Below the pieces are notes generated by a model. The model was not told where the DNA came from. It was given only the letters and a program-made list of their open reading frames with translations, and made no database searches. From Raillietiella orientalis (lineage: Eukaryota), in contig JAYWIR010000002.1 of the NCBI GenBank assembly GCA_036172245.1, forward strand, positions 3,596,001-3,660,000: 64,000 nt of DNA, in the 5' to 3' direction. This document shows positions 1-42,966 of the stretch, in pieces. Position 1 is the stretch's first letter; each line of letters begins with the position of its first letter. The position numbers and the translations under genes are program-made.

Positions 1-2427
1 CCTCTCCCATCGCGGGTGGGGGAGACCTGCGAGGATGGAAGCGGAGCGTCGCGTTGTCAAGGTGACAGACGAAAGTGCGCAGCAGCAACGTATGTGGCAG
101 GTTTGCTCACGCGACCGCGTGTGTGTGTGTGTGTGTGTTTTTTTTTATTTCCCTCTTTCTTCCATTTTCTATGGAGCAGCATTTTCTTGTTTCTCGTCGT
201 CGTGTGTCCAGACGAAAGTATTCGGGCAGCGGAGGGGGAGGGAAGCGCAAGCTCCCGAGCAGCCTCTTCTCGCGGGATGGGAGGGAACAGGCGGGGGTCT
301 GCGTTTTCCACGCCATTGTTCGCTCGAAAAAAAAAAAAAAAAAAGAAGGAAAGAAGAAAGAAAGGGACCTCGAGCAGACGCGCGCGCACGTGGATGTCCC
401 GGAGCCACATCGGAAGCGGCGGCGCTCCTGACGGGGCACCGGTGGTCCGGGATAGGCGTTCGCGCGTCGCTGGGAGTGGGTCACAGGAAGAGATTTGGGA
501 AGGGAGGGGGCACGTTTTTTGTCGACGCACCGCCTGTTGGGAACGAAGGGATGCCGATTTTTTCGTCCCCGTTCCCGGACTGGACTGCGCACCGACCTAG
601 AGGCCGGGGGGGGGGGGGAGGTTCGGGGTCGCCGACGCGCTTGCATTCCTTCCGCGTCCCCAGTCAGCCTCCTGCATCCACTCTGCACATTTGGCACCTA
701 CGCCACTGGAGCCACCTCGCCGCTTTTCCCGCTTTATTTTTCGTAGGCGAGTCGACGACGGGGATGCCTCGTGGCTCCACTCGGGGGATGAAACGGCCGC
801 GGGGTCTGTGCTCCAGGAAACCGAGGATGGGAAGGAAGGGGAAGCTCTCCTCTGCGAAGGGGTCATCGGTCGGGGCTCGAAAGTGCACTCGGCAAGGGTC
901 AGGAGGGGGGAGAAAGGGGAGGGTCGTGTACTGAGGGCGAAAGTGGGAAGGCTGCTCACTGAGTTCGGGACGACGCGGAGCCCGAGGGTGGTCAGCACGC
1001 CTGGGAGCAAACACAGCGACCGACGGCGGCGGGAGGAGATTGGAAGGCGGGGGGGGGGGGGGGAAGGACGACTCCGGCTCGCCGCCGCCGCCGCCGCCCT
1101 AAGAGGGAGGTGCGTCTGCACCCATCCGGTGATCTCGCGAAGTGTTGCCGGCTCCTGCACCGCGGCGGCCGAGAAATCCCTCCGCTCCCCACTCGCCGAG
1201 CAGGGACGAGCGAATTTCCCAGTCCCTCTGCCTCCTCCTCCTCCTCCTCCTCCTCCTCTTCCTTGCCCGTCCTCCCTCCCGATTTTCAATAATGCAAGGA
1301 GAGCGCTTTGGCAGACCAGCCGGGAAGGTGGGCGGAATTTGGCACATCCTCGTGAGTAGAGCGAACGCGGGAGATGGAAATAGAACCCGCTATTTCAGTT
1401 CCTCGATGTTGGGGTTCGCGGGATTTCACGAGGATGAACGGCGTGCCCGACGGAGACACGGATTTCCCTCCCTCACCTCCTTTTTTCCCGCTTTTCGCCT
1501 GCACACACGCGCGCGGCCAGAGTTCTCCAGGGAAAGCGGGGGTGGGGAGTGTCGCGTGTGTGTCGAAAGACGCACACGCGAGAACAACCGGGCGGGGGGG
1601 GGGGGCATCCGGAAATCCCGTTAGCTGCCCGGCCTTTCCTGTTTCGGAGATTTCGCGTCCCGGCAAAAGTTCCGCCCTCGCCAGAGGAAGCGACGAGGCA
1701 AAACGGAGTCTCCGGGAAGCCTCATTGCCTTCCCAACGGGGAGGGAGGGAGGGGGGCGAGGAGGGGGACGCTGTCCTCGCCCCGAAGCTTCGGAAAAGGT
1801 ACGGTCGCAGTCACCGCGGTTCTTCGCGGAGCGCCTGCGACCGCTGGCCTGCGAAGCTGCGATGACGGTCCACGTGGTCGGAGATCACAGTTACGCGGCA
1901 CCCTTCCCCCCACCCCCTCACCCCTGTGGAGGAAGTCCTGAGAGACGAGCCGGGCAGGGTGGTGGACTGCACCTCTAGAACGAGGGTGGGGGCGAGGGGA
2001 AGGGGGAGGACTTCAAAGAGCCAATTTCCCACCCCGAAACACGGGAGCTCCCTGGGGGGCAGGAACACGGCGAAACAAACAGGGATTTGTCGCCGGGATC
2101 CGGTAAGGAAGGAGGCGAAGAAGGGGGGGGGGGAAGGGGGAGGATACTTTGCCCCGCTGTCTCCTCATCCCTGCCAATTGATAGAGAAATGCATCTTTAG
2201 CCAATTAACATGACGAAAACAGAAGAGTTGGCTTTCATGGGAAGAAGCGTTCCCTTCGATAGGTGTTCACGTAGAAAAAAAAAGGAAAAAAAGGAAAAAA
2301 AAAAAAAGAGGCAAAGACAAAAAAGAAAGAAAGAAAGGAAGGAAGGAAAAAAAACCGAAAAAAAGCGGGAAGAAGAAGAAGAAGCAGGAAAAAAGGAACG
2401 GACAAGCGGGAAAGCGAATGGGGAAGG

Positions 2428-2432
2428 GGTGT

Positions 2433-2463
<31 letters not shown>
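2428..2463. repeat. (TG)n microsatellite with one interruption
   Basis: Directly visible run gtgtgtgtctgtgtgtgtgtgtg... Confidence 0.9.
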
Positions 2464-2556
2464 GGGGAGGGGGGGGTGCCACGCTCGCGCACACACAAAC
2501 TTTCAAACGGCGGACAAATGTCGGGCGAGGCGAAAGAGAGCAGCAAAAGGACTTAC

Positions 2557-2608
2557 CGAAGTTCGATCGCTTCCTTGGTTGAGGGTTTTCCTGCTTCCTG
2601 CGCGACAT
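2557..2608 (-). CDS. First coding exon of a probable second BCL11-like gene (paralog B), encoding the NuRD-recruiting peptide MSRRKQENPQPRKRSNF; remaining exons not seen and presumably left of the window
   Basis: The minus strand reads gacATG TCG CGC AGG AAG CAG GAA AAC CCT CAA CCA AGG AAG CGA TCG AAC TTC G|gtaagt. MSRRKQxxP is the NuRD/RBBP4-binding motif of BCL11, SALL, FOG and ZNF521 proteins. It is followed by a consensus donor (GTAAGT at 2556-2551). Length (52 nt) and phase (1) match exon 1 at 17826, with 13/17 identical residues. Confidence 0.75.
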
Positions 2609-2709
2609 GTCAGGGAATTTCTCTCCCGCGACGGCGGCCGCGACTTACTTGGCTTATGCGGCGACGGATGTGTCCGCAGCACTGTGCAAACCGCGTGCAA
2701 CGCGAGGAT

Positions 2710-2715
2710 AACTGA
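2710..2715 (-). promoter_or_regulatory. Candidate Initiator (Inr) element for the minus-strand gene
   Basis: TCAGTT on the - strand matches the arthropod Inr consensus TCAKTY. It lies about 105 nt upstream of the ATG at 2608, with no ATG in between. No DPE was seen at +28 to +32. This is a short motif match only. Confidence 0.3.
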
Positions 2716-3293
2716 AGTGGACCATGCGATGCTCGTGGGCTTTTCGTCGTACTGCGTCTCCCCGGGAGAGAACGATTCTCGACCTTGCTGAGTAGGCACA
2801 GGAGAGATACAGTCCGCGGGAACAGGATCGCCACCGCTTTTGAGCATCGGTCTTTCTGCTCGTGGCCCCATCTCGTTCTCGACGGGGATGCTCCGCAGGA
2901 CGACCGGAGCTCGCGCGCGTAGGAAGTACCGCATCCCCCGGATGCACGTACTTGCTCGCGTTTTGTCCACGCGGCTCGGCCTGGCGCGGGGGGGGGGGGG
3001 GCACCCGATCGCGTCCCCGGGAGGGCACGCCACGTCCACTAATGAGCACAAAACACTCATTAGCCGGGATTCTCCAGTCGGGACGCACTTACCGCGAACA
3101 CAGCAACACGAATGCTTTGCGGGTCCTTTGGCCGCGATTATTCCACGATGCCACCGCGGGCGCGAAATAGCTGCTCGCACGCAGGAATACCGAAATTTCG
3201 TGATGGGAGTCCTGGAGGCGCTTATACGTGGCTGCTGCATTAATTGCGGGAACATCACAACGGGCGCGCGAAACAAAAAAAAAAGAAAAAGGA

Positions 3294-3324
<31 letters not shown>

Positions 3325-3645
3325 AAAAAAAAAAAAAAGGTTCCTCGGTCCCTCCCCCCCCCCTCCCTGTGCGGTTCCGGGGATGGAGCAAACCGAACTA
3401 TCAGGTTTGATAAACCGGATCCTTCGCTTGCGTGTTTGCTCAAAACGTAAGTAATAGGAAACACAGTAAGGCGCTTATATTTTCCTTCTTCAATTTAAAC
3501 AGACACCTGTTTGATATCGGCATGTTGATAAGCACACGGGAACACTAGAGGGAACGCTGCCACACTCTATCGGATGCAGGAGCTCCGTTCCGCTCTCCCT
3601 CCAGCCTCGGTTTTCCACATTTGTGTGTGGGCTTAGCACACCGAC

Positions 3646-3741
3646 GAAGAAGAAGGTTTAGAAGAAGAAGAAGAAGAAGAAGAAGGGGACGAGAGAGAGA
3701 GAGAGAGAGAGAAAGGAAACAGAAGAAAGAAAAAAAAAAGA
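3646..3741. repeat. Compound purine-rich simple repeat, (GAA)n + (GA)n + A-runs
   Basis: Directly visible runs gaagaagaag... gagagagaga... aaaaaaaaaa. Confidence 0.85.
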
Positions 3742-4849
3742 GAGGGAGGGAGAACAAAAGAGAAGGAAACCAAGAAGGAGGAAGGATGGCAAAATTAAAG
3801 AGGAACGCTTCGTGGCCACTCGGTTGGCCGATTTCAGACGTTGCAGCGTTTGGGTCAGGAGCATCGCCACGCCACAGCTTCCGAGTGAAGATGTTCATGG
3901 GTGGAACAAATGAAACTAGCAATCTGCATCATCCTTCATCTAACATGCTGGGAGGGGGGGGGGGGGAAGAGGGGAGAAGGGGGAGGGGAGGAACAGTAAT
4001 TAGGAGACTCTTTCAAATGAATCAAAAACCGGAGGCAAATCGTGGCGGGGGGGGGGGGGAATCGATCCACGCAGGACAGCAAAAAGCTGATTTGGTACAT
4101 ATCCGAAACGAGTGCTCTCCCGGTCGCCGTGGACAACGCAGGAGTGGTGGTCGTTGGTCACAGAGAGGAACGGCTCGCGTTTTGCAGGAGTCGGAGGAAA
4201 GTGGATATCCGGCTGCCTCGCTGACCTGGATGACCACCACGTCGCGTGTGGCGCACATACGCTTAGAGTGAGGCAGTTTCCAAGTTGCATCGGCGTTTCA
4301 GAGGAGCTCTCTTCTTTTTTTTTTTTTTTTTTCCTTTCCAAAAAGAAACGTTTCGTGCATGCGCGTGTACATGTACGTGTTTTTAAATATGCGCGTATGC
4401 TGTACATAGGCAGATTCATGGAACCGTAGACGGGAAAAAAAAAAAAAAAAAAAGCAGCAGCTACGTCTGAGCTACATCTACAACCCTCGTGCAGATCACG
4501 GGGAAGGTCTTCTTCATTCTGGGACGGAAGAATTCCTGCATCCGTTTGTGCTCTCCCATTGCAGCAAGACTTTAGGCACAACAAATCCCTTGCTGGGGAT
4601 AGGCGAGGGCAAACGAGCAAAATCAAACAAGAATTTCATCACTTCAAGACGTAGAGCAAGATGCATCGCTTTATTAAAGGAAAGAATCAATCTAAACAGA
4701 ATGATACATGCTGCGAAATGGCCGTGTTTCCGTTGCAAGTGTTCCAGCATGGAACAGCAGCAGCAGCAGCAGCTTTCCTGCTGCTAGCCAGCGGCACTCG
4801 CAGCTGGCATTCATCAGGAGCGCGAGCGTGGTGACATCTACAAGAACTC

Positions 4850-7100
4850 CACAGTACCAAGCCGAAAACTCCGCCGAATGTGCCCGCTTGTCTTCTCTCT
4901 GCACGATTTCCCTGCACTCTGCGCCTTCGAAATCCTCAGGATATTCCTCTTTACGAAGCCGTGGCACCGGGACCGCCCATCTTTAGGGCAGCAACAAAAA
5001 CTCTTCGGTTTGTATGACGAAGTTGCATCCCTCACGAGGACAAGATCTTACCGGTTTCCTGCTCCTACGTACTCTCATGTGTTCCCTAGCCAGTGCCCAA
5101 GCGCAAGCGAATTCCTTCCGGCGTATCCTTGAAGGTGCACACGTGACGGTGATTACAACGCGTGCAGAAAGCTGTCTTCGCAACGCCTTTTCCCTCCCGC
5201 TTAAGGACCGCGTGGTCACGTGTCTGTGCAGTTTCCTCCGCAAGGAGCCTGCAGCCAGCACGCAGGGAAGTATCTGCAGAGCCTCGCTGCCCAGATGGCG
5301 GCAAGTTAAGCCTCGCCAGTCGCCACTTCTTCCCGTGCCGATCGCGAGGCGAAACGTCAGCAGACGACCCGCGGACGACGCCGATGCTCTCTCGACCGTG
5401 CTGACCATGGGACTGGCAAGCGGAGGCCATGTGGCGCCAGTCCTGGGGAACTCCCTTTTCCTTGAGAGATTCCTCCGGGCCGCCATAGCAAACGCCTCGA
5501 ATGGCCATGACCGAGGTGGTCCTGCAAAATGAGAAGTTCCTCGGAACGTCTCGAAGACGACGTGAGAGGAAGAGAGCCCTCGCTCTCCTGGGGAAGGGGG
5601 AGGGGGAACCTCATGGCGCCACCGAGAGAGCGGACACTCCGCGGTGCCGCAGTCCCAACTCCCCAAAAGGATTCCCGGACCGCCGAGTTCGAAATGGGCA
5701 GCGTCCCGGCGTTCCACGTGGTGCTCGTTGTCGTCATCGGGAGAGCCTGGAGACGAGCGCGGGAAAGAAGTGTCGCCGGCGCTGTTTTCTCCGCTAGGAA
5801 GCAGCAGCGGCGAAAAAGGACCGAGGGCCAGAGCAAGAACAGGGGCGGAAGCAACGGAAGAAGAGGAAGGGGGGAGGAGGACGCCGGAGCTACCTCGCAG
5901 AGGCGGCGCCACCACTCGGGAGTTTTCGGCGGCGCGACGAGGCGAAGTCGGCGTCCTGTTCCTTTTCCCGCTGTTTCAGGGAACGCTGCCAAGTCGGGGG
6001 GCTTCGCTCAAGCTAAAAATAGTCATCCGTCCTCTTCCGATGCGCGAGATGCTCTAGGAGACGCAGGATCAGGGCTCCCGCCGACGCAGGTGAGAGCAGC
6101 TCCGGACAGAAAAATCCTAGAGGGAAGCAGCGACGTTTTCCGGATGGAGGGAAGGAAGATGCGCCATCCATCCTCCAGAGGCTCCCCTCAATCCCTTCCC
6201 CTGAGGCGGGGATGCGTCGCGCGCGGCAGCTTCGCTCCTCCCATTCGAGGAGGCGCTCGATTTCTTGGCGCCGCTCTTTGAGGGACGCGAGAGACCCCTG
6301 CGTCCCCAGGGATGACCGGCCTCGAGGGTCCAGAGCCAAAGAAGCGCCCGTGGCGGTGGCGGAACCACCGGAAGGAGGAGTAGAAGGAAGGTGGAGCAGG
6401 CATGAGGGAGCCGCTACTCCGTTTCTCTCTCCTCCTCCCTCTCCTGCCAGCAGCCTCCTCGGGACACTCGAGAGCTCGTCTTGAGGAGGGGGCAGCACCT
6501 ACCAACAGAGGGCAGCCTCCAGCCCGAAGGCAAGAGGAAAGAGGCACCCCTACTACGAGAGGAAGGGGGGAAGGGCGGGAATTTCTTCCTCGCCCCTTCC
6601 TGATAGGATGGTGAAGGCCTCACCCAAGCGCTCGAGGGCAGGAAGCTGGATCCACCAGGGAGGAAAACGAAAGGGGTGGACGCGCTCCGGAGAGACTGCC
6701 AGGGAGCTCCTCTCTGCATTTCAGCGTCGTCCCATAGCACGGTCTGGTGGCAGCGATGGAGCTAAGCTGTTCTGGAAGCCGGGGTCTGCAGGGACAGGGG
6801 AAGAAGGACTCTTGCGAAGAACGCCTTTCCGTCCTGAAATCCTCTTTCGCGAACCTTCTGCGAGGCCAGCCATTTGGACCCTCGCTCTAGACCAGAGGGC
6901 CCGCGTTCCCCTGTTCCCGCTCTCCTCGAGCCCGCAGCAGAGGGAAAGACGGGAATGATTCCATCTTCAAAGCTCGAAAGCGGGAGCTCCCTCACGGTGC
7001 TACTCAGAAGCTCGCGGAAGGAGAGGAGCTGCTCCTCCGGACTCCGGGGGCATCCTTCTGGATGGGTCGGCTCTGAAGGAGCCAAGTCCGGAGAAGCCCC
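4850..7100 (-). mobile_element. Decayed Ty3/Gypsy-like LTR retrotransposon pol relic (RNase H end, integrase core, integrase tail)
   Basis: Frameshifted minus-strand peptides occur in Gypsy pol order. About 6880-6760: 'SKWLASQK...SQESFFPCPCRP/GFQN', resembling KWL..K...LQEF.F...YRPG..N. About 5470-5300: 'LKEKGV/RTGATWPPLASPMVSTVERAS...DW', resembling the integrase T.YHPQ.N.VER...DW. About 5100-4965: 'AWALAREHMR...DLVLVRD...K.F...RW', resembling the GDLVL...PRW.GP tail. No LTRs were identified and the boundaries are approximate. Confidence 0.45.
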
Positions 7101-10100
7101 CCGCTAGCCTGTCACGCAGGTGGCTCTTTTTCCTGTAAGTTCGCAAAGGGGGGGGGTGCCTGGGGGGAGAGAAGGTCGCGCTCTTCCTCTCCCCTCCCCT
7201 TCCCCCAGAAGAGTTTCCTGCTGCGGTGGAGCGCGTGCTCTCAAGAACCGCATCTTCTCCGGACCCGATCCTTCCTCCCATGAAAGGAAACACTCTGCGG
7301 CAAAACAGGACATATCCCTGCGGTCCGCTCCGGAGATCTCAGAACAGGCGGACTCTCGGATAGAGCTCTCCCCGAGGACCGCGTCCCCGGACAGAACCAC
7401 CGGCGGCCGCCTCAGGAGACGGCGAACGAAGTGCTGCCTACTCTCCCAGTCCACCCTACTCTGGCTGAGAGCACCGAGACCTGGGACTCACGACTGGACG
7501 GTGACGCGAAAGCGATCGTTTTCGTATTTCTCCCCAGCCGCTTCGCCCGAATACTTCCAGCCCCCCAGGGAGGATCCAAGGACCCCGTTCCGGGATCCAC
7601 TCCATCCTTTCCTTTACCTCTAAGCCCTCGGGGTCTCCACCAACACCTATCTTTCCAGCTGCCCCATCTCTCGAGAGCTAGAAAGGTGGAGGAGGGGAAT
7701 GGACTTCGAGTTGATCTTCCCCTGGTGTGGAGCGGGTGCGTCCATCGGGCCCCTTACTCCTCCTTACAAGCCTCAGCTTGATCCGGGAGCCGGAGAAAAG
7801 CCTCGAAGGGACGTTTCCACGCCATGGAATGCCGTGCGTCGCTCATCTCCGGACATCTCCCGCTTCCCTCCGAGAGAGACGCGAGGACGGTGATCGCCTT
7901 CCCCTGCTCCCGTCCTTCACGAGTCTCCCACGCGAAGGAGTGGGAAGGAGTGGGGACCGGAGCCGCGGCTATTCAAGGGACCACGAGGGATGGCTCCCCG
8001 CAGGACAAAAATGGTTTTTTTCTTCCTCTCCTCATCGCTCCCGGATTTTTTTCCTTCCTCTTTCCGTTTTTTCAGAACCGGCGAGAGGGACTCTCCCTTT
8101 TTTTCCCGTCCCTCCTTCCCTTTTTTGTGTTTTTTACCTTCGCACCTTCTCCGGGCGCCGGCACAATGGGTCGTCCTGGCGTACAATGGGGGCTTAGGGG
8201 GAGTCCGGGAGGGGATGGGGAAAAGGGTCGGGCGGGAGCGCTGTCCGTCCTTGGGAAATGTCCGGCGCCTCCGCGGGGTCGCGTCCGATAGGGATCTCCG
8301 CGGCCGGGATCGGCGCTCCTCCTCTGGCGGCCGCTTCCTGGAAGCGCTTTGTGTCACTCCCCCTCCTCGTTGCCTTCTCATCCCCGCTCGAAGCGCACGG
8401 CGCGGAGGAGACCGGAAGCTTGCCTCCGGTGTCGTCTTCGAGCCGGCGTTGCTTGGTCGGCCGTTCGGACGCTTCTCGAGGAAGGGCGGGAGCATCCGCC
8501 TGACCACAACCGCCGTCCTTTCCTCGTCACCTCCCGTTCCTCACGGAAGGAGACGTAGGCAGATAGGGAAAGACGAGACAAACGCTGGGTTTTAAAGGTA
8601 TTTTCAAGGACTGTGGTGGACGTCTGGCACAGCCGTCTCTCTCCCAAAGTGCAGTCGTTCGCTCGCTGTCCGGGCAACGCAGGTGGCCTCAGTGAAGGTG
8701 GCTCCCTTTCTCACGCGTTTCTTTCAGGATTCCGGGATTGTGTAGAATGGTCCTCCCCTAGTCGTCGTTCCTCCTCCTTTCTCCAGCTCTCTTCCTTCTT
8801 TCCTCGTGCCCTTTCTCCCTCTCCCTGTTTCTTTAGGTTCTGGAAGAGGCGGCACTCTCATCTGTGGTCTCGCGGGCGACCCCACTGATTCGTAGATGCC
8901 TCCTTCCCTCCCAAGAATCAGGCTTCTGGAACGACAGAGGCACTTCTGAGAGCATTGCACGTTCTACCACCCGCATAGAAGATGCGCTGGCGCTCTCAAC
9001 TGCAACGTCTGCGGAAGAAGGAGGAGACCGGGAAATGCATGCATCTTCGCGTCTCCGAATCCCCTGGGAAAATCTCATCGTTCTTCTCGATCGCTTTCGT
9101 CTATCCCTACTCTTTCCAGGTTCCCCATCTGCTTTCAAGTCAACGTCCCCTCCCTCGCACCTTCCCCGCCCTTCATTGCATCCAGAGCATCCCAGGGAGT
9201 CCTTCCTCCAATCGGACTCACTGACGCTGCATCAGCTAGCAGGGATCCCTGGAAAGGCAACTCAGGGAAGGAATGCGGGCACGGTGAAGAATCGTGGAGG
9301 AGGAACAGAGGAGGAGGAGGAAGGGGGGGGGGTACACGCTGAACCGCCTGCACCCGCTTTCTCCATCTTCACCATCAAGGAAACAAAATTACGGAAGATG
9401 GAAGAAGGAGGTTCCCGGCCACGATAGCGCCGCCATCTCCCTGCTCAGAGCTTTCTCTTCACGAAGACGAGCTTCCACCATCGGTTTGCTCCGGATCTTG
9501 ACTTCGGGGACAGTACCGAGAGATCGGGAGATCCAGAGGGTCGCACAAGCCTACCCACGGGTGTCGGGATACCCTTCCGCGCCACTCGCTTGTGCCTCCC
9601 GCTACGCCAGTGATGGAAGGGAGATTCAGAGGAGCAGCCTGGAGGAAGGCCAAAACGCCTACGGAGGCTCCTCGGGGCGATGGGCCCAGAGAAAGAGAGA
9701 GAGAGAGAGAGGCGTGAAGCCAGTCACGTGAAGGACAGAAACAGGGAACGAGGCTTATCTCTCGCCCAGGAGATTGTGATCGGGGCACCTCGCTGGTAGT
9801 GAGAAGGCGGGAAGCGAGTCGCCTTCCCACCCGCATTCGAGTTTGTCCTTCCTTCATTTACGGAGAAGGGAGGGGACAGCGTTCAGATCGCTATATCCTT
9901 TCGTCTCCTCGGCTGCAATGAGCCAAAGGCGTTCAGAAGGCGACCCGCAAGGGCTAAGGCTTGCCACGGGGAGGCAACATGGGAGTACGTTCCCCGCGGA
10001 GGAGCCACGCAGTTCGAGGGAGGTACCTCCTCTGGCCGCAGCGAGCGCTCGGGCGGACTGTCACCGCGCAGATGGCTCACTGTCTCCAGCAGCTATCCCG

Positions 10101-13100
10101 AGTACTCTGGAAGAAGCGAGAGACAGCTGCATGCACTTCAGGCTGCTGTCTCCCGAACTCGGGTGCCTTTTTTTTTTTTCTTTTTTTTTTAGCCAGGGAC
10201 CTTCGGATAAAGAGAGGAAGTAGGGCGGTAGCAGCAGCACTTAAGCATGAAAAAAGGCAAGTGATGCCTCTGATTTGTGGACAACGGGTGCTGCAGAAGG
10301 GGAAGGCAGGAAAGACGGGAAGCGCAGCCAGCCTTCAGTGGAAAGACTGCTTCCTCCTTTTTTTTCCGTGTGGCCTGTTGTGTGCGCAACCCAGCCAATT
10401 TCCTCTCCCACCCTTCCCTTCCAGCGACTTTTGGAACTTCAGTTCCGCGGAACTCCCAGTTGGTTTTCTTTGCAGAGGAGGACACTCCATGCCGAGCTCT
10501 CCCTTCCTTTGCTTCCTACTCCCAGTTCTTTCCCATTTCTCCCTTTTCACGTCACGCCTTCGTTCCTTGTCATGGACTTGCACCTGGACCGTCAGGCATG
10601 ACTTTCTTCCTCCCTCCTGGAGCATCGCTGTCGGAGAAGGGATAGTATGCCGCTGTTTCCCCAAGGAACTTTCCGGCTTATGGGATAGCAATAGCCCGGA
10701 ATAGCGTTCAAGGGGAAGGAAAGAGGACAACGACATCTTCCTTCTTCCGGAGTTATTCTCCCGCGTTCGCTTCCTTCCCCGCGCTCCAGAGGCCCGGTCT
10801 GGCGAAGCGGTGAGGGAGGAGAAGACTTTCAGGAGACTGTGGACCGGGAATTCTCCATGAAAGCGATTCTGGACTGCCCCATGGAAGTTTCTCCCGTCGA
10901 AATCGCTGCTGTTCATAGGCAGTAGGACTGGAAGAGAATGTGTGCTGTCACTGCTTCCCAGGTTTCTCTCCTCTCCGGCTCTCCCGAGAGTCTTTCATGC
11001 CTTCCCACCCTGCAGAGGTCTCATCCGTGGAGGAAGAAGGCCATCTGAGTCCTGTCTGTAGTGATCGAGTTTCTTGTCAATTCCCTAATCCCATCCTCCT
11101 CCCTTTTCTGCTCCTGTCCCCCAGGCGAATGAGGGTCCTAGCGGAGAGAGTAGGAAATAGAAATCTGTGAGACCTTTGAGAATCCGTGATCCTTGCTCGA
11201 ACAGAAAACCACTTGGCTGCAGGCCTTTCCCTCCAGGGTGCCTGAAAATTTCAGTAGGAGCTCTATCTCCGTTCCACTGGCAGCTATTGCCTTCCCATCC
11301 TTTCCATCTACATAGCACCAACAGAAACCATCCGCTCCTCTAGTCAGTTGCCGCAGTGGTTCTCTTCCCCATATTAGGCAACGTACTCTTCCTTCTGACG
11401 GCCAAAGAGGTTTTGAGCCATCAAAGACCACTGCCCCTGGGCAGCGAGGAAGTCCCGAGTATGGCACCTTCTACCCTGCCTTCGCTCCGGTGCTAAAGTC
11501 TAACTGCAGCCACAGAGGGAGTGGTGAGCAGCAGCATAGCAACGTTCTCCCGTGGAGCTGGTCTGGTGAAGGTCCTGGAGTATGTTGCGTTCCTGGCGAT
11601 GGTGGAGGTAAGGGTAGGGCAGCACGGAGAGATCTCCCGGAAGTTTTCAGCCACTTCAGTGTCACGAAGGGACGCTCCAGCATCTCCTGAACGACCCTCT
11701 AGGCAAGGGAGTGCGCAGGCCAGCGAACGACATGGCGGACGACCAGCTCGCCGCCTCGATTCTCCTGCCATCTAGGAGTATGCTGTTGAAACACTCTCTG
11801 GGATAAGCGTTCCCTCTCCCCTCTTTTCCCTTGAACACGAAAGCACCAGCAGCAACCGCAGTATCAAATGAAATTTTCCATGCATCTATGAGGCTACCGG
11901 ATACATGAGCCATCTCGAGTGTAGTGCGCCACGGGCCATGTAGCCAACGGAGGCGTCCACGCGCCTTTGTCGATCCTGAACAGATGCTAGGCGAAGAGAG
12001 GGCAGCACGAAGTCGATAGGCAAAAAGTCGGGAGGGCAGGGAGCAGAAAGAGGAGAACACAAGGGAGGGGGAGGAGGAAGGAGGGAGAAAGATACCACGT
12101 GACTCGTAGCAGCTTCTCTAGCTACGAGTTGTGCACGTCCGCAAAAGCGCACAGGGAGTGCTGACGTCACGAGGCGTCTTGGGAAGCGCCCTTCCGGTCG
12201 CGGAAGGAAGGAACCCCCCTCTCCAAACGAAGATCTAGAGAACCGCTAACTCCTCCCTCCTCCATCGTGGAAGGATTTAGGTAGAGGAGGCTGCCCCCCG
12301 TTCTTGACGAGAGGTCCGCACGTTTGCCACAGCAGCAGCAGCAGCAGCAGCAAGGCTGTTTTTTGTTTTGTTTTTGCTACTGGCAACTCAACACTACTGA
12401 GATGATCAAAGTGGCTCCGCGCTCTGCTTGCCGCCAGCTATGCGACATGGTGGCGCTCCGGAGCAAGCGAGTATCATGTGGCGGGGACGGGTCTTGCGTG
12501 CATCCGAGCGTTCCCGGAGGCGCGTTTCCATCTTCCACCGCTCCGAGTGGCGGCCCGTCCGCTCCCGGCCGAGTTTCGCTCTCCCTCCCGCCAGCATTCT
12601 TTTCCTCTGGAAGCCAGCCACAGTCGGTTCCGCTTCCCTTCCCGGTTGCTGGGGGGAGATTCCACACCGCCGCCTCCACCGCTGCCGGCGGACAACGTGT
12701 GTGCGAAGTGCTCCAAACTGATCGGAGGGGAAGGGCAAAGGGGGGAGGTAGCAGGGGAGGGGATTGAAGGGGGCAGAAGAAAATGGGTTTCTCTGATGCA
12801 GTGCTGATCGAGGTAACGCATCTTCCCCACGGCGATGCGATCACCGAGGACGGGAATCGGGCGCTTCCCCATGACTGGCGGCAGCTGCGGCGGCTGGCAG
12901 GAACTAGGTTAGGGCTCGGCGGGAGGGAGAAGGGCGGGATGAGGGAGAGGGGGGAGGGGAATCGTTGCGCCTGACCCTCCTCTCTCTCTCGAGAAGCATC
13001 TGGAGCCACCTCGGAGTTCTCTCCCGCCGCCGCCGGGAAGAGTGAGGGGGGGGGGGGTTACGGGCTGAGGCGTGTGCTCCAGGCTTTTCACACGAGGTAG

Positions 13101-14399
13101 AGCATCGATGACGGGATCGTCCGGGGGTGGAAATTCCTCCTAGCGCCTACACGGAGGCACGCGCTTGGCGAGTGGCGCGCACGGCCTCCTTTTCTTCCTG
13201 CTGCACGACGGCCTCCCCCTCTCCACAGCTGGATACGCGGTGAGCCCGCGCGAGAGGACTCTCTCAGCTCGAGGAAGGTCTGCGGCAGCGCGCCTGTGCC
13301 GCCTCCTTGGAGTGAGCTCGCGTCTCGCCCGGGACTTTCCTGAGATCGACCTGGCTGCCCCCGAGTCTCGTTGTCTTTCGCAGCAGCGAACCTTCTACTA
13401 CCTCCCTCCCGGCTCCGGAGGGCAGTCGAGGTTCTCGGCAGCCCCCGTCCCGAAGGCGGGATCACAGGGACGCGGGAAGAGGTCCCCGCTCCCAGGTATC
13501 TCCCTGGACCCCCTGCTTTACCTCCGGGCTTTCGCCTTCTCGTGGGAAGGGACGCTGACTGGACCTTCCGGGCACTTCGCCTAACGGGAGGAACAGAAGC
13601 GTCGGCTCTTCCGGTCGAGTCGGCTCTTCAGCGCCTCGGACGTGCGAGGCCTCCACTGCTGCGCCTTCCTCGAGAGACGGGGAAGGGTGGGGGGGACGAA
13701 GGTGAGGATGAGAAGGGAGAACGCGCATCTATGTAGGGAGCGCCTGAAGTGGCGGCAGCTGTAGCCAGAAATACGCGCGCGTTTCCGGGGGCGATGCTCC
13801 TCATCGTCCCTGAGAAGGCTGAGGACAGAACCGCGGCCGAGTCTTCGATCGACGGTTCCCTCGTCCGCTGGAGGGATCCGTGGCTGTTTCAAGGTGGGAA
13901 AGTCTTCAGCAAGGGATACTGGCTGAGGACGATCGTGGAACCATTCCCGACGGTTCCCGGAAACACTATCGAGGAGAAGGAGAGGAGGGAAAATCCCAAA
14001 GGAGGCGGTGGGGCCCTCGCGGGAAGGGGGGAGAGCAGGCGCGTCATCCTCTGCTTCTGGACGGAGCCCGCTCTTTCCGTGGCCTTCGACTCCTCCGGGG
14101 CCTCCCTGTCAGTCTTCCCAAGAATTCACACACCCAGTCCTGAAAACACGGCCTGCTAGTGGGGTCATTCGAGCCACGCCGTGCTGATCGCGCGGGCGGG
14201 TCCAGTACGACGCGAAGAGGCAGGCCTGTCTCATCCCATGAGGTGGATCCGAAGCTTGGGAGGGCCGCGGGGCCGAAATAAAGCGGCGCGGCGCGTCCTC
14301 CCGCACCGTCGAAACGGGGAACGCGTGCTATCTCTTCCCGAAACGAAGCGAGGAGGAAGGCGAGAGGATCTCCCCCGGCCCCATTTCTTCCTCTGTCCT

Positions 14400-14600
14400 C
14401 ACCCCACTCTCTGCTCTACTTTATCCCGTTACCGACCGATTCTCGCTCCACTCCACCTCCAGCCCCCTCCACTTCAATTCGTCCTACTTCACCCCCACCC
14501 CACTTCACCCAAGTTTATTCTTTCCCCACCCCATCCCGATCTTTCCTCACCCCAGTTTACGTCACTCCGGCTTACTCTGTCTCTTCACTCAACTTTGTCC
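14400..14600. repeat. Degenerate pyrimidine-rich short-unit repeat (CACCC/CACTC/CACTT-like)
   Basis: Recurrent ccact/cttca/cacccc units with very few G on the + strand. Confidence 0.5.
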
Positions 14601-17179
14601 CGCGCGCCCTCATCCAAAGGGTTTGACCCTTCCAAGGGGCATCCGATCTCGCCAAAAGAGGCAGGGCCGACCCCCGGCAGCATTCCTAAGGAGACCTCTC
14701 CTCGGCCCAGAGAGAGGAGAGGGCACGTGTCCCTTCTCCTGGCTACCTGGGCATCGGGGAGAACCCGAGCAGGCGGTGCCACCGGACAACCTCGTACCTG
14801 GCGACAGGGGTCCGCGTGTCTGGACGGCTACCTGCACTCCCGGGCTCTTCCCTGGATTTTCCGGGGGGCTCCTCGAGGGTCCTCGAAGTATCCACCGCCT
14901 TCGAGGGGCTCCGCCGCATCAGAGGGGTTCTTTCCTCCCTTATTTCATCTCTCTTCGCTCTTTCCCCGCTGCGGGTGCCACGGTCGGTGCGAGTGCCAGA
15001 GACCCGAGCACCCTACCCTCCGCTCCATCTCCGGTGCGCGTGCATCCCGGAATTCCCGCTGCGTGACCGCTGCTCCTCTCGTCTCTCCTCTTTTCCTTTA
15101 TTCTGAGCTGACCATCGAGGAGGAGACAGGAAGAAAGGGGAGCAGAAGTGGACAATGCGGGCGCCAAAAAAGAAAGAAGAAAAAAAAAAAGGGGGAAAGG
15201 GGAGCGTGGGAAGAGATCAGGCACCCTCTCGGAACTACTGGCCGTCAAGGCCAGAAGGAGATGGAGTTCGGGCCGGGGTCCAGAAAGAGAGACCTCGTCG
15301 GCGCGACTTCCCCCGACCCGTGGTGCGGGTGAGAGCGCGGTGAGATAGAGAGGCGTGCTCTGGCGGACCTGCCGAAGCCCTGCCGATTCAGGCGCGCTCT
15401 GGCGGGGATGCCGGCAGCGATGGTGGCACTCCAGGAACTCGGTTCTGCCGGTGCCACCGGCTATCGGTCGCAAGAAGTCCGTCGTCTCACCGTCCAACGG
15501 GGGCAGAGCTGGCTGCCGCATCGAGAACGAAAGGCAGCGCACGGAGCGAGTCATCTAGCGGCGTACCCTGCACCTTTCTTGAAGCTGCCGACGTGCTCTT
15601 CGGGGAGGGGAGGGGTTGCGGTCTGAGAGATCACCCCTTCTTCCTCTCTTCCTTCACACAATTTCACTTGCACGTGAGGAGGAAGGAAGGGGTGGGAAGT
15701 GGGGCGGACCGAACGGGATCTCCTGTTCCCCGTGCCGCCGAGGATCGTCTTCCTTTCTAAGCGTGACGTGGCTGCGTTTGATGCAAGGGGAGGTGCAGAG
15801 CACTCTGGTCCTCTCTGGGGGAGGGAAAGGGGGGCAAGCGATAGGTACCTCCGGAGAGGCTCTTTTCTGGCTTGTGCCTTTCTTCTGTATGTGGAAACGA
15901 GAGCGGGTCGACAAAAAGGAAGTGCCTTGACGACAGGATGACGAGGAAACGGGGGGATCACTCATGATTTCGTCTGGAGGGAGGGTGGGCAGATGGATTG
16001 GGGGAGGGAGGATTAGAAGAGGAAGATGGAGGGTGGAAAAGAGGACGCTTCCGTTTTCTCAAGGTCGTTTCACTTTTACTCGACGGGCCGTGCACCTGAC
16101 GGTCCCACCGGCCCTCTGTCGGAAGAGAACGCAACCGAGCGTGCTTTCTCCGCGGACCGCCACGCCTGTCTCGGCGCTAGGGACGCGGCACGGCGGCCTC
16201 CTCCTCCCTTTCCCTTCATCCCGAGTGCCTTCCGCGTTCCTCGCTTGCTCGCTTTTTGCGTCACCGTGCTCGACGCGGCTGTTTTTTCCTTCTTCCCTTC
16301 CTGTCGCTGCTTTCACATGACTCACGGCACTCTCTCTTGCGCACGAGCGCGTGCGCGCTTCGTCCACGGATCGCGGCATCCGCCCTGTCCTGCCCTCCTC
16401 CCCCTCTTCGCCATCCAACGTTTTTTTTTTATCCTTCTCGGCGGTGATCAGATGCGGAACAGGGGGCATGGATGGGGATTGGGGAGGCGGGGTGGCATGC
16501 GCGGCCACTCTGATTCTTTCTCACGCTCACAGAGGAAGGCGGGCTGTCACGAGAAAGATGTGAACCTGGTCGTCTGCGGGTGCTACAGACGAAACCGCTT
16601 CCGCTTTGATGAGGGAGATCCGCAAAGAATGGCGGCGAAGGAAGGGGGGTTGAACGAAGAGGATAAACCAGGAACCAGCATCCACGTATCTATATATAGG
16701 TGCTCCATTTGTGGCGCTGCTGCTTGGGTCCACCTGCACACTTTCGAGATTATCCTCTTTTCCGCGTGTGTGCATTTCTCCCCCCCCCCCCTATCCCTCC
16801 CCCCGCTGCTCTCCTGTCGCGTCGAGAACGCGGGGGTGCATCTACCCAGAGTTCTCGAGTGCGGGAGGCGCATGCGCGCCGGCGTCCTCTTGACGTCGAC
16901 GGGAGGCGCTGCCGAGAGGAGCGGAACGTGGAAAAAGGAAGGCGAAGGAGAGGAAAAAAAGAAAAGGAAGGAAAAGAAGGAAAGATGGAGAGGCTTTTCG
17001 CGCGAGCCGAGCCGCGAGGACGTGGAGGGAATTCTCTGCGGGTACAAGAAGAGCGACGAGGACGGAAGGCGGAAAAGGGAGGCGAGAGAGGGACCGGGTG
17101 GGGGGGAGGCAGGTGACTCCGCACGTTCCTCTCTTGGGAAAGAAAAGAAGAGGAAAAGCGGGGCGAGCGAAGGGACAAA

Positions 17180-17560
17180 CCCGCTCTGCCGCGCGCGCAA
17201 AAGTACCTCCGCCGCCGCCTGCAAGTACCGCCGGTGCGCGCGCGCGCCCTTCGCTGACCGCGGCCGGGATGCTCGGCTACGAGTCGGCTGCGAGGCGAGT
17301 TCGACGGGAGCGCTGCGAAGAGCAGGGGCAGAGATGGCGCGAGGCGGTCACGCGTACCGTCGATCCGATCCGATCGCGTTTTACCCGGCGGTGCTGCCGG
17401 GAAGTGCCTGCCGTTGCTCGGCGTTCTCGGACTAGCCCGCGCGCCGGCCGACGACGACGACGCGCGCACTCCCCTCGCGTGTGCGTGCCCTGCGTACTGC
17501 GTGTGTGCGTGCGCGGCGCGCGTGTGCGCGCCAGTCACCACGTTCTGCTACTGCTGCTTC
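17180..17560 (+). promoter_or_regulatory. Probable promoter/5' region of the plus-strand BCL11-like gene
   Basis: Very CpG-dense segment with alternating purine-pyrimidine tracts (17461-17530), ending at an Inr-like CCAGTC (17531-17536) about 290 nt upstream of the ATG at 17826. Inferred from position and composition. Confidence 0.35.
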
Positions 17561-17668
17561 ACCACTACCGCCGCCGCCGCCGCCACCACCTCCGCCGTCG
17601 CCACCACCACCACCGCCACCACCGCCACCACCGCCACCACCACCACCGCCGCCGCCGCCGCCGCCACC
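17560..17668 (+). repeat. Interrupted (CCG/CCA)n trinucleotide repeat in the putative 5' leader
   Basis: About 36 triplets: caccactaccgccgccgccgccgccaccacc...gccgccgccgccacc. Confidence 0.95.
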
Positions 17669-17825
17669 TTCCGCGCCCCTCATCTTCTTCCTTGTTCCCC
17701 CCCCCCTTCCCCCCCCCCTCCTCCTCCTCCTCCTCCCCCTCTCTGGAGAGGACGGCGACGAAGAGATGACGATGTGTGCCACCGCCACGTCCTTCGCCAG
17801 CATGAGATGACGGACCCACACGGAC

Positions 17826-17877
17826 ATGTCTCGCAGAAAGCAGGAGAACCCTCAGCCCCTCAAGCGTGTGCACTCCG
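17826..17877 (+). CDS. BCL11A: BCL11-like gene (paralog A), coding exon 1: NuRD-interaction peptide MSRRKQENPQPLKRVHS
   Basis: gacATG TCT CGC AGA AAG CAG GAG AAC CCT CAG CCC CTC AAG CGT GTG CAC TCC G|gtgagt. This is the BCL11-type MSRRKQ N-terminus with a canonical donor. The phase-1 end joins in frame to the exon at 29005. The symbol denotes the family, not strict orthology. Confidence 0.9.
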
Positions 17878-27725: not shown

Positions 27726-29004
27726 TTTTTTCCAGTGTAAAATTAAAAGGAAAAAAAACAGCTTGCTAGCTTCGTCACCTAGGAGACCGCGAACGCCGGG
27801 AAAGGCTGCCTGCTACGACACATCAGAGTGCAGCGCAAATGATTCATCAGGGTGCTCCGCGTGGAACTTGGCAGCCATTTCCTCCTCCTTTTCTCGCGAC
27901 TCCCAGCAAGCCTATTTTTTTTTTTTTCTTCTTCTTTCAAGGAAGCGTTTTCTTTCTCTTCCCCCTATCCCTCTCCCTTCCTCCGTTTCCCCCACGATTC
28001 CGAAGATGAATCTTTCCCCCGCGTTTTTCCTCGACCCAAAGAGCATCGAGAGTTTCCTTGGATACTCCTCTCGTGTTCTGATTGGACGCTCGCGATTCTA
28101 GTCTCGCCAGCAGCATCCCGCAGTATCACTCGGGTTTTGTTCCTTTGGAGGTTTTGTCCGTTCACGCGTTCCCGAGCAGCCGCTATCCGCTGGCGGGTCC
28201 AGCAGGCTCATCTTGCAGGCGCAACGACGGCGGGACATGTAGGACTCGCGCCTCCCCTTCACTTTTCCTTTGTGGTTTTCCTTTCTTTCTCCTCCTCCTC
28301 TTTTCCTGCATTTTCCACCTTTCCGAAAGTGCGAGGAGCATTTTCTTTCTGTCTTTTCTCCCACTTTCTTCCGTCGGGAAGGTGCGGGGCATGCAAACAG
28401 CCCCACTCGTGTCATTCTGACCACCTCGGGCTCCTAACGAAGCTTCTCTTTGCTTTCCCGAGAGCGGAGAGAGTTCCTGTTTTTCTTTCCCCTCCGTTCT
28501 CATCTTCCCTCGGTTCTAGCCGGGACCTTGCAGCCCGGGTCCCCTCGGTCCGTTTTCCGTGTTCCAAAGAAGAGCATCAAGCGCGCGCTCTCGAGTTGGT
28601 AACAGCGTCTCCTTAGCCTCCGCTGATCATCCTGGCGTCCAGAGATCTCTCCTCGAGCAAGAAACCAAACGGGGGAGAGACTCTATCCTGAGTTTCTCGT
28701 TCGCGGAACCAGGAAACGGAGAAAGACCGCTGCGTTCCTACGGGAGCGTCAGCATCCTGCCATTCAGACAGTCCTTTCCGTGCTCGCACCGCGGGGACGC
28801 ACCCTTCAGGAATGACTCCCCTCAAGAAACCCTTCAGAGGGAGCAAAGAGTTTTGCCTGCTTCCTTCTCTGCTGCTCCTTCATCTTAAAGATTCTTGCTC
28901 TGGCTCCACCCCCGTTTTTCTCTCTCGCTTCCCCTCCCTCCCTTTCTCGTTCCTTCCTCTTTTTATACGACTGCCACATTATTTTTGTTTTGTTTCTTTT
29001 CCAG

Positions 29005-29346
29005 ACGAGCAGAACGAGTGCCCCACCTCTGACCTGCTCGTTTGCGGACGATGCCAGAAGGAGTATCTCTTGTCGAAGATCGTGAGTTTCATCCACCACA
29101 AGAACTTGTGCAGGGACGGTGGGGGCAACCATACGAGGAGCCCCGGAAGCGACTCTGACAGCGATAGGTGCGACCGGATGTCTCCCTCCGGGGATCTCGA
29201 AACCGGCTCGGAGGTTGCCGTCCACCTGTGCTCAGGGAGCGCGGAAACAGGGAGGACCGCCTCCCGTTCCCCTGGCAACGCCGACACAGGCGACAGGGAC
29301 AAGTCATCTGACCCGGCAAGCAGGAACCCCAGAGGAGGCCGCTGCG
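29005..29346 (+). CDS. BCL11A: BCL11-like gene (paralog A), coding exon 2: CCHC zinc finger (ZF0) plus low-complexity linker
   Basis: Strong acceptor tttttgttttgtttcttttccag|AC. It encodes DEQNECPTSDLLVCGRCQKEYLLSKIVSFIHHKNLC, matching the BCL11 ZF0 pattern DLL.CG.C.....L..I..FI.HK...C. The donor is TGCG|gtaaga at 29347. Length is 342 nt, phase 1 to 1. The 3' boundary is less certain than the 5' one. Confidence 0.85.
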
Positions 29347-29749
29347 GTAAGAAACGTTCCCCTTCTTCCCCTTCGCCCTCGCGCGCAGCGGAGGATGACG
29401 TCAGGGAGCATGGAGTCGGAGTGGACTGGGGAAGGGAGGGGGGGGAGGGAGGAAGGAGACTCCGTACCCAAGCCTAAGATCCTCCCCCGCACGTCGATGC
29501 GCTCTCGCGAAGGTGATCATCCAAGCTCGTGAGTCGAAGGCAACGCGCGCGGGGCGGACGGGCTTTGTCGTGGAGGCGGGAGTCCGGCAAGGGGCCTTTC
29601 CCTTTTCCCTCTTGTTCGCAGGTTCATCTGGGACTCTTTCCAATTAGCAGGGGAGACCAATTCTTTTCACGGTGGTCCCTTCGCAAGTGTCCTCCTCCTT
29701 CTTAGACCTATCACCGATCGTTCTCGGGTGACCTCCTCGACCACATCCG

Positions 29750-30400
29750 CCACTTTCTTTCCGGCAACCGGGAAGATCCTTCTGTAGAAGTTCTTCCGAG
29801 TCGCTCGTCTCGGGGATGGGTGGACTGTTCAGGCATCAGGGAGAGTCTTTTACCCTTTGAAAGCCAAGGTGAAAGGAGTGGGAGTGGCGTGGTTGCATAT
29901 GGTCCCTGCAGATAGAACGACATCCTCCAGCCTGAGGAGATCATAATGACCTGTCCTGAGGCACAACAGGGCTGCGTCTCTTCTATCTTCCCGGCGACTA
30001 CTCGGCACTGGGGTGTCCCCCCCCCCACCTCTCTCTCCACCATTCACTTCCCTTCTCACGAGACCTTCCGACGGGGCTTCGGCGATCTTCCGACCAACCC
30101 ATGGGCTCTTCCCCTCTCTCCAGCTTATCCTCCCCTGTGAAGCAGATTCTCCCTACCTCTCAAAGTCCAGCCTCCAGCCACTGTATTCGTCTGGGAAGCT
30201 TCTTGCGTTACCTTATTCTCCGGATGAGGTCTAGAAAGAGGACCAGTGATCGGACTGAGCATCCCGAAGGGAAAGAGTAGGTTCAGGAGGAGGTTGAGTT
30301 TGCATCCCGTCGCTCCTCAGGGAGACTAAGGCACTTGCTGGCCCGACCTGCCTCTCTCCTGGCGACGTAGGTTTTTCTTGTACGCGGCGTCTTCTGCTGC
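29750..30400 (-). mobile_element. Decayed I-group-like LINE ORF2 3' fragment in intron 2
   Basis: Minus-strand 'SSRREDRRDAALLCLRTGHYDLL' (~30000-29935) resembles the RR....L.RLRTGH motif that precedes the C-terminal zinc knuckle. The upstream 'REAGRASK' (~30350) weakly resembles the RNase H E.AD..AK motif. Confidence 0.35.
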
Positions 30401-35588: not shown

Positions 35589-35656
<68 letters not shown>

Positions 35657-38292: not shown

Positions 38293-38296
<4 letters not shown>

Positions 38297-40765: not shown

Positions 40766-42966
40766 CGTCGCCCCTGGTCTGCTGCATCTGCCGGATGTGC
40801 TTCCACTCGGCGTGGGAGCTGCTGAAGCACGCACAAAGGAGCCACAGCATCCAGATCTACGCCGAGTCCCCTAGTGAAGGAGCGGGCGCGACGTGCGCTC
40901 CACAGGAGGAGGGGGCAGCGAACGCACACGGGTCACCTCCAGCGCATCACCCTCCGCCTGCCGACTTGCCAAAGCTGCTGCTGGAGTCCTCCTCCTCCTC
41001 TTCCTCTTCCTCCTCCTCCTGCAAGCCAGCAACGGACCTGCAGCGCGCCTTGGACGTCTTCCGCAAGCCGCTGTCCGAGAAGGCGCAGACCGGCGGACGC
41101 TCATCCCTCCTAGCGAGCGCCAATACGCGCGACTTCCGCATCGACCGCATCCTCTCGGACCAGTTCCGCTTCGCCGCGGTTGCCGCAGCCTCTTCCCCGG
41201 GAATCCACCACCATCTGGTGTCCCCTTGCGAGCCCGCCGCCGCTCTGCTGGACGGAGCTGCAGAGCGGGAGTTGTCGTCCCCCACGTTCTCGCACCACCA
41301 GCCTGCCGTCGGAGGGGGCAACAGCATATCGAACGCCCTCCGGGACTTTTACTCCCAGCGCCTCCGGCAGCTCGTGGACCCCTCCTCTCTGGGTCGCTTC
41401 CCTGCACCCCACTGCCTCGGGTCGCCGGTCTTCCCTTTCCCTGAGGCTCCAGGGACCGACATCCCGAGAGACCTTGATCAGCGGCCGGGAGCCTCCCCTG
41501 CCTCTAGGACCTCCGGTCGCAAGCACCGCAAGAGGGATTCGAAGGGGGTCGCCTGCGACGTCTGCGGGAAGGTCTTCAAGCTGAGAGCCAAGCTGGAGAC
41601 TCACAAGAAGAGGCACCAGCTGAAGATCCTCCAAGGTCCTGCTGCTGCCGACGGCTCGGCGAGTTCCCGCGAAGACGTCGGCGCGGGGGAAGGACAGCCG
41701 CAGTCTTGCAGAGAGCGCCGCCTCAAGGAGGATGACAACGGTGCTGTGCCAATCAAAGCGGAAAACCCCGGAGACGCCGCCGCACAGGAGGGCGAAAGCA
41801 TCGCTGAGGAGAAGAATCGTCCTCCAGGGAGCGGCGGCGACGGGGATGACGCCTCTCCCTCAGCGCCTGATCGCCGGAACACACTGATCCAGGAGCTCAT
41901 CGAGAACACCGGACTGGTGGACATCCAGGAGTACAGTGAGGCGTACGACCAGGCCCTACGGGAGTCCAACGCGGCGGCAGAGGAAGGAACGCGGCGCCAG
42001 AACTGCGACGCCCCCTCCGGGCAGGCTGGCGGCGGCGGCGGCAGCGGCGGCGCGTGCTTCGATTTTCCCGGTCTGCCCGCCTCCGCGGAGGACGTCCTCA
42101 ACGGCGAATTTGGCGGCATCGGGGCGAGGAGAAACTGCTGGGGCGGACTGGTGTCCGACTACCGCCTGGGCGGCCACGTTTTCACTGGCAGTGGCAGCGG
42201 ACTGACCTACCCGCTACTCGCCTACGAGGGAGCCTTCTGCGACAAGCAGCTCAAGGCTTGCCTGGGCTCTGCCTCGCCCTTCGGAAAGGGTGCGACGGCA
42301 TCTGATGTCTGGGCGCCGCCGTCACCGCTCCTGCCCCCTCCCACGAAGGAGAACTGGTTCTCCGCTTCCAAGGACGACGGTGCCTTACCCAACTCAGTTC
42401 CTAGCCAGCCTCACCACCGGTGCAGGGGTGCGGGAGGCGCTGCGGCAGCAGCGGCAGCGGCTGCCGCCGCTGCTGCTTTGTTACTGTCCTCTTCCTCCTC
42501 CTCCTCGATCCCCGGCGCGTCCCTATCTTCCTCTTCCTCATCCTCTCCCCCACTACTCCTCGCGGCAACGAAAGCCACCGGCCGGAGGAACGACACGTGC
42601 GAGTTCTGCGGAAAGGTGTTCAAGAACTGCTCTAATCTGACGGTGCACCGAAGATCGCACACCGGCGAGAAGCCCTACAAGTGTGACCTGTGCTCCTATG
42701 CGTGCGCCCAGAGCTCCAAGCTGACGCGGCACATGAAGACCCACGGCCGCACGGGCAAGGACGTCTTCCGATGCCGCTTTTGCGACATGCCTTTTTCCAT
42801 CGCGTCCACCCTGGAAAAGCACATGCGCAAGTGCGTGGCTAGCCAAGGAAGAAAGAGCTCCTCCTTGGTTTACGCCTCGCTGGCACCCCCAGCGTCTGCG
42901 TCGGCGGTGGAGGAGTCTGCTAAGCGCAAGCACGCGATGAAGGCCGCAGGCGGCGGCTACTTTTGA
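40766..42966 (+). CDS. BCL11A: BCL11-like gene (paralog A), large terminal coding exon: ZF1, one central C2H2 finger, C-terminal triple zinc-finger cluster, stop TGA
   Basis: Acceptor tttcttttctcggcag|CG is in phase 1 with exon 2. The exon encodes [27 protein letters not shown] (ZF1), the [10 protein letters not shown] motif, the [25 protein letters not shown] motif, and [81 protein letters not shown]. The last is nearly identical to BCL11A/B ZF4-6. Confidence 0.95.

Follow-up and report, generated by a model that had tools for sequence, protein, structure and literature searches.

BCL11 genes, with their six conserved fingers, are usually given as single-copy in flies and duplicated in vertebrates; human BCL11A and BCL11B lie on separate chromosomes, and loss of their N-terminal NuRD tag causes disease. 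What does it mean, then, that two first exons of the tagged type face away from each other in one short stretch of an arthropod genome? This stretch, here called the window, is 64,000 nt long (G000:C2:3596001-3660000 of a 210-Mb assembly), and our local scans took in 364 kb around it. The original prediction read the two exons as the starts of a divergent pair of BCL11 genes, which we call A (plus strand) and B (minus strand). We found that a second, complete BCL11 gene starts with the minus-strand exon and stands head-to-head with A, but that the pair belongs to a cluster of three BCL11/Chronophage genes on contig C2, arranged as C← B← →A over about 107 kb. The third gene, C, which had been missed, lies in tandem beyond B on the same strand and starts 33 kb past B's end (Table 1).

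Both 52-nt exons were found where predicted, in a gacATGTC context and with phase-1 ends (G/GTAAGT and G/GTGAGT), and they share 39/52 nt and 13/17 amino acids, with synonymous changes in 6 of the 13 codons for identical residues. An exon-profile scan of the 364 kb gave these two as its only strong matches (scores 74 and 73, next 41), and the first 14 residues of B equal those of Limulus P0282. A minus-strand exon with a phase-1 acceptor, 11.8 kb downstream of position 2557, encodes ZF0, the BCL11-specific CCHC finger (PF25491, 45 bits, cut-off 27), and is followed to the left of the window by ZF1 and by a ZF4-6 block 91% identical to that of A. These downstream exons rule out a spalt-, FOG- or ZNF521-type identity for B, and with them the orphan-exon and trans-splicing readings of 2608-2557 are not needed. 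Genome-wide, exactly three loci exceed the PF25491 cut-off (14 of 14 candidates scored), with 40.3 bits for A, 45 for B and 42.5 for C, and the ZF4-6 of A, used as a query with 150 of 199 candidates scored, returned three blocks at 100, 85 and 81%, all on C2, the next match being at 48%. All three genes have an isolated ZF1 with an F-x-SAW motif and unchanged base-contact motifs in ZF4 and ZF5, judged by the contacts described in PMC12006351; their ZF4-6 is identical to bird BCL11A at 66-67 of 82 residues, and the top 120 matches of gene C all carry the BCL11 central pair and ZF4-6. They also share one architecture, a phase-1 exon 1, a ZF0 exon and a large last exon, with introns 1 and 2 of GT-AG type and in phase 1; intron 1 measures 11.1 kb in A, 11.8 kb in B and 12.2 kb in C, and the open models encode 864, 693 (with a 74-nt segment removed, see below) and 623 amino acids.

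A, B and C are orthologues of BCL11 but depart from its canonical six-finger architecture, a point that had escaped the original prediction: none has the central ZF2-ZF3 pair. A and C each keep one divergent central finger and B has none, and ZF3 is absent from all three copies; a genome-wide search with Limulus ZF2-3 (150 of 247 candidates scored) returned only the three ZF4-5 pairs, at 75%. The central pair is present in 185 of 190 full-length homologues and absent in 5, so the loss is rare but not unique, Artemia P0334 and Halotydeus P0470 being named BCL11 proteins that also lack it. The prediction had further noted no similarity flanking the two exons, and blastn between the territories of A and B gave five plus-strand matches (ZF4-6, exon 1, ZF0 and two simple repeats); since these are limited to coding parts and simple repeats, there is no conserved flanking similarity. 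The A-B interval has no copy of itself elsewhere in the 364 kb, and an Rfam scan of the window plus 60 kb to its left gave 0 matches. Divergent promoters probably lie between the two start codons; the 15.2 kb that separate these are too much for a single core promoter, barring long introns in the 5′ UTRs.

Gene C starts differently. The N-terminal RRKQxxP motif, which in human work binds RBBP4/NuRD (described in PMC6644156), is present in A and B and not in C; the genome encodes an RBBP4/Caf1-55-type partner (PF12265 on contig C27). A motif-blind scan from ATG to phase-1 donor over the 45 kb upstream of C gave two distinct donors, one of which closes the 37-nt exon MRIKMPPLRITL. This exon agrees with beetle starts in sequence and in length (12-codon+1) and shares the G-K read-through of Sitophilus P0284, and homologue isoforms imply the same length for the MRIKMP exon. 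The start MRIKMPAVRIA(Q/K) or its tail occurs in 19 of 120 homologues; the 210-Mb genome holds two exact matches to the MRIKMP pattern, and the number expected in the gene C stretch is about 1e-4. The only match outside gene C is at G000:C46:220138. The second intron of C is 52 nt long with a weak donor, and the neighbouring SF3A3 gene has GT-AG gaps of similar size. Another MSRRKQ..P start lies at C1:7417237 (minus strand), about 10 kb upstream of a multi-finger gene (C1:7400096-7406163) that is probably of spalt or FOG type.

The two kinds of start exon are otherwise distributed by lineage. In a tally of the named annotated proteins retrieved (unnamed, mollusc, vertebrate and Strigamia rows left out), which rests on annotations in which a small, far-off exon can be overlooked, MRIKMP was present in 27/36 and RRKQ in 0/36 of the pancrustacean taxa having a protein with ZF0, and in chelicerate taxa RRKQ was present in 11/13 and MRIKMP in 0/13. 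About 22 of the 27 MRIKMP bearers are beetles, the rest being Artemia, a damselfly, two bugs and a fly. Decapod and amphipod BCL11 proteins (P0471-P0491) have a third type of N-terminus, MEVLYPxNLALLSMFLK, which is neither RRKQ nor MRIKMP. The host itself is placed in Pancrustacea, because on the mitochondrial contig (G000:C282) trnL(UAA) directly follows cox1 (under the ARAGORN default score but clear in the sequence), an arrangement given as a pancrustacean signature in PMC1590035; a 93.5% copy of mitochondrial sequence on contig C50 ties this mitochondrion to the genome. The host is thus a pancrustacean with an RRKQ-bearing BCL11, a combination seen in none of the 36 pancrustaceans sampled. 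The closest named matches of its SF3A3 are at 68-71%, and a quick tree put it beside an ostracod (SH-aLRT 83, long branch, stitched query); a search for mir-282 gave no match anywhere and carries no weight for the placement.

RNA came from the one small metatranscriptome run found (share 0.05), from a relative, and its contigs were aligned to window positions 28500-44500, that is, to gene A only. One contig, 514 nt long and of depth 5, matches 29004-29346 except for 17 differences, which makes the relative about 95% identical; the alignment ends coincide with both ends of exon 2 of A, and of the 155 letters by which the contig extends beyond exon 2, the 30 shown are the exact end of exon 1. 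Spanning the end of exon 1 and the whole of exon 2, this one contig supports the first splice of A and both ends of exon 2. Across the comparison, A differs from the relative's RNA at 79 positions, and among the 40 listed 26 are third-position differences, with 24 synonymous and 11 non-synonymous codons. Splicing of B and C is predicted. On the relative's contig, the donor of exon 2 is followed by 16 letters that repeat the first 16 letters of exon 2, which, in this one contig and over these 16 letters, suggests a back-splice or circular-RNA-type junction exactly at the splice sites. Exon 2 of A is in phase 1-1 between 11-kb introns, and exon-2-skipped isoforms exist in a scorpion (P0270). The name circBCL11B occurs in the human literature.

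How might such a cluster have arisen? On their divergence the three copies are old: over ZF4-6, dN is 0.049 and dS 0.45 between A and B, and C compared with either gives dN 0.11-0.13 and synonymous sites at or close to saturation. A and B are sisters (86/90 and 83/92, with a long-branch warning) and have ZF0 and ZF6-linker signatures in common, so that the lineage-specific duplication proposed in the original prediction gains moderate support for A+B (83/92, under the same warning), whereas the trees leave the placement of C undecided. We favour, as somewhat more probable than its denial, an account in which two alternative first exons of an ancestral gene were divided, through local duplications within this pancrustacean lineage, between the NuRD-recruiting A and B and a C free of the NuRD motif. 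In the single ancestral gene, coding would have begun in either of two alternative first exons, one of 52 nt (MSRRKQ) and one of 37 nt (MRIKMP). C would have arisen by a tandem duplication not reaching the distal MSRRKQ exon, the A/B ancestor would then have lost the MRIKMP exon, and a later inverted duplication would have produced the head-to-head pair, although this order of events is itself a reconstruction. The minus-strand order of MSRRKQ exon, B body, MRIKMP exon and C body is what would be expected from partial tandem duplication of a two-start gene. By analogy with human BCL11 work, all three proteins would bind TGACCA-type sites through their intact ZF4-6 and probably oligomerise through ZF0; A and B would recruit RBBP4/NuRD through RRKQxxP, and C would not do so by that motif. 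Copy-specific expression may then set the amount of NuRD at shared targets, probably in neural development, where PMC9482335 and PMC10848406 give Chronophage a role in Drosophila and in a spider, respectively. The low-affinity ZF2-3 array would have decayed.

Several observations weigh against this history. A single gene with both first exons was found in 0/36 pancrustacean and 0/13 chelicerate taxa, which leaves the two-exon ancestor unobserved; no MSRRKQ-type exon for C was found in the 45 kb upstream and no remnant of one near C, and no MRIKMP remnants were found in the introns of A or B, where the best other score was 30 and not a start. ZF2-3 loss recurs independently in Artemia and Halotydeus, which makes it weaker as a shared character of A, B and C. 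In the free tree C does not fall with A+B, a grouping of C with other pancrustaceans without A and B is not rejected (p-AU 0.34), the reading frame of B is broken, and RNA support is confined to A, with none for B or C in a comparison that covered 28500-44500. The first of these points, and the p-AU value, also favour an ancient paralogy. On this view the duplication of BCL11 dates from about the root of Pancrustacea, and one of the two copies, C, gained the MRIKMP exon and is the orthologue of Chronophage in insects and branchiopods. The other, with the MSRRKQ exon, disappeared from the other pancrustaceans sampled but was kept here, still next to C, and gave rise to A and B. The near-saturation of C against A and B would fit as well, as would the position of C's exon 1 at an intron-1 distance like those of A and B, as expected of a sole first exon. 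Because neither this arrangement nor an ABC clade (p-AU 0.36) is rejected, ancient paralogy is a serious rival, but we regard it as unlikely: the domain-only tree puts A+B, not C, inside a weak pancrustacean group (81/93) and leaves C unplaced, and the scenario requires that ZF3 went separately in C and in A/B, that the MSRRKQ copy was lost several times and that the genes stayed in tandem for a very long time.

The model of local duplications that split two ancestral starts has a wider form, to which we give rather less than even credence. An early pancrustacean gene would have had both the older, NuRD-binding MSRRKQ exon and the more recent MRIKMP exon; insects and branchiopods would have kept MRIKMP alone, so that Chronophage lost direct NuRD recruitment; and here, in a preserved transition state of arthropod BCL11, the starts would have been split among three clustered paralogues without ZF2-3, which would form hetero-oligomers by way of ZF0 and adjust the dose of NuRD at TGACCA targets in common. 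MRIKMP, with its conservation between this genome and beetles, would be an undescribed co-factor-binding motif. The cluster may thus record how insects swapped the MSRRKQ tag for MRIKMP.

In gene B the genomic frame of ZF1 is not that of ZF4-6 and meets a stop about 30 codons further on. The frame is restored when one GT-AG segment of 74 nt, whose donor is good (C2:3580209-3580136), is taken out. The closing codons of this segment are similar to the D-F-R-M-E box conserved in homologues, so that in origin it looks coding; there are C-rich runs within it, and split frames also occur in the mitochondrial contig of the same assembly. An assembly indel is the explanation we lean towards, a 74-nt intron is a weaker but credible candidate, and a real frameshift is improbable. 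If real, a frameshift before ZF4-6 would make B a recent pseudogene or the source of a short ZF0/ZF1 protein, a dominant modulator like the short human BCL11A isoforms, and the loss from B of both central fingers and a conserved helix points the same way as the break itself. Such a fate is improbable for B, given that its ZF4-6 has a dN/dS of about 0.11 against A within a 490-codon open frame (GC3 0.86), that one segment restores the frame, and that the break sits in C-rich runs of an assembly whose mitochondrial contig has split frames too. Very improbable is a single complex locus in which the MSRRKQ exon of B also splices to the ZF0 acceptor of C, 65 kb off, giving a NuRD-binding C isoform: strand and phase are compatible and C lacks an MSRRKQ exon of its own, but C has its own conserved first exon, the splice must jump the whole body and 3′ end of B, and the RNA comparison, which covered gene A only, lends no support. 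As an explanation of the copy number, an assembly artefact (haplotype duplication or misjoin) is effectively refuted, since nucleotide identity among the copies is 67-78% over conserved domains, they share no introns (non-coding similarity among them is limited to simple repeats) and they lie in 364 kb with no Ns, even though an 11-kb tandem duplicate 75 kb further left shows that the contig can carry near-identical repeats.

Table 1. Features of the three-gene cluster (plain numbers are window positions; C2 marks contig positions)
Feature	Position	Strand	Remarks
Gene A exon 1	17826..17877	+	52 nt, MSRRKQENPQPLKRVHS, phase-1 donor, RRKQxxP NuRD motif
Gene A exon 2	29005..29346	+	342 nt, phase 1-1, ZF0 CCHC finger at 29034-29111, PF25491 40.3 bits
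Gene A exon 3	40766..42966	+	To stop; partly covered by the relative's RNA contigs
Gene A exon 3 fingers	40780-40845; 41554-41616; 42598-42834	+	ZF1; single divergent central finger; ZF4-6
Interval between A and B start codons	2609..17825		15,217 bp, GC 0.59
Gene B exon 1	2608-2557 (C2:3598608-3598557)	-	52 nt, MSRRKQENPQPRKRSNF, phase-1 donor
Gene B intron 1	1..2556 (its start, running out leftward)	-	11,783 nt, GT-AG, phase 1
Gene B exon 2	C2:3586773-3586486	-	ZF0
Gene B exon 3	C2:3580472-3578657	-	ZF1, frame break 3580209-3580136, ZF4-6
Gene C exon 1	C2:3545924-3545888	-	37 nt, MRIKMPPLRITL
Gene C exon 2	C2:3533700-3533356	-	ZF0
Gene C exon 3	C2:3533303-3531814	-

The cluster has 54-62% GC with a CpG o/e of 0.9-1.06, and is bounded sharply by housekeeping blocks (C2:3496000-3531000 and 3701000-3720000) of 37-42% GC and a CpG o/e of 0.71-0.78, which hold Hsp70, a C2H2 gene, SF3A3 and a kinase that we take to be CDK8-like, Hsp70 and SF3A3 being to the left of the cluster and the kinase to its right. 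The 11-kb tandem duplicate (C2:3428574-3455445, 99.87% identity) is recent or an assembly artefact, and near it lies an ORF that by eye resembles a reverse transcriptase (C2:3421660-3425682). The mitochondrial contig has trnK beside trnR, not between cox2 and trnD; the mitochondria of Argulus and Armillifer, as described in PMC10999652 and PMC12856591, are partly alike in trnK position but differ in the other gene order. Ahead of cox2 this contig also has a second, degenerate copy of the trnL2 region (C282 1692-2313); one block of its tRNA genes is rearranged (G, E, N, F, A, S1, nad3, R, K), and many cox1 copies occur in nuclear contigs.

The open-access literature (supplements outside the search) yielded no report of a BCL11 tandem cluster or of a swap between two start exons. 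Tandem duplication with promoter partition is an already known kind of event: in the pea-aphid follistatin triplication, as PMC11874257 describes it, the duplicates kept only one of several ancestral promoters. That precedent concerns another family and a partition of expression, whereas here a co-repressor-binding peptide was removed too. The head-to-head pair alone is of moderate note; the significance lies in both first exons together with the shared decay of ZF2-3. Human BCL11A and BCL11B have the same RRKQxxP-RBBP4/NuRD motif as A and B (PMC6644156), the human ZF0 oligomerisation finger (PDB 9b4p/9bv0) matches ZF0 here, and the human ZF4-6 base-contact residues are alike in A, B and C. 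The human proteins, however, keep a bipartite reading head of ZF2-3 and ZF4-6, described in PMC12006351 as low- and high-affinity arrays, respectively, beside a ZF0 that forms homo- and hetero-multimers. All three copies lack this bipartite head, which makes the cluster a natural test of the dispensable parts of BCL11.

Among arthropods, Drosophila Chronophage (CG9650) and the insect and Artemia proteins likewise have ZF0, ZF1 and a ZF4-6 with a C2HC ZF6, but nearly all insect proteins examined keep ZF2-3, and PMC9482335 describes one BCL11 gene in Drosophila, against three here. Chelicerates (Limulus, Pycnogonum, spiders, a scorpion and ticks) share the 17-codon+1 MSRRKQ first exon of A and B and, as here, have several BCL11 paralogues per genome, but keep ZF2-3 except in some mites. 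The two Parasteatoda copies lie on different contigs (102.7 and 92.0 Mb) and so do not form a tandem array like the cluster here; they presumably stem from whole-genome duplication. The first exon of gene C, for its part, matches the start MRIKMPAVRIAQ found in beetles and in Bemisia, Lygus, Hetaerina and Teleopsis; the Artemia start is near-identical. This cluster thus unites, side by side, two kinds of start exon that elsewhere keep to different subphyla of arthropods. It points to an apparently unremarked swap of the co-repressor tag in pancrustacean Chronophage, with MRIKMP a short conserved peptide whose partner could be sought in Drosophila or Tribolium.

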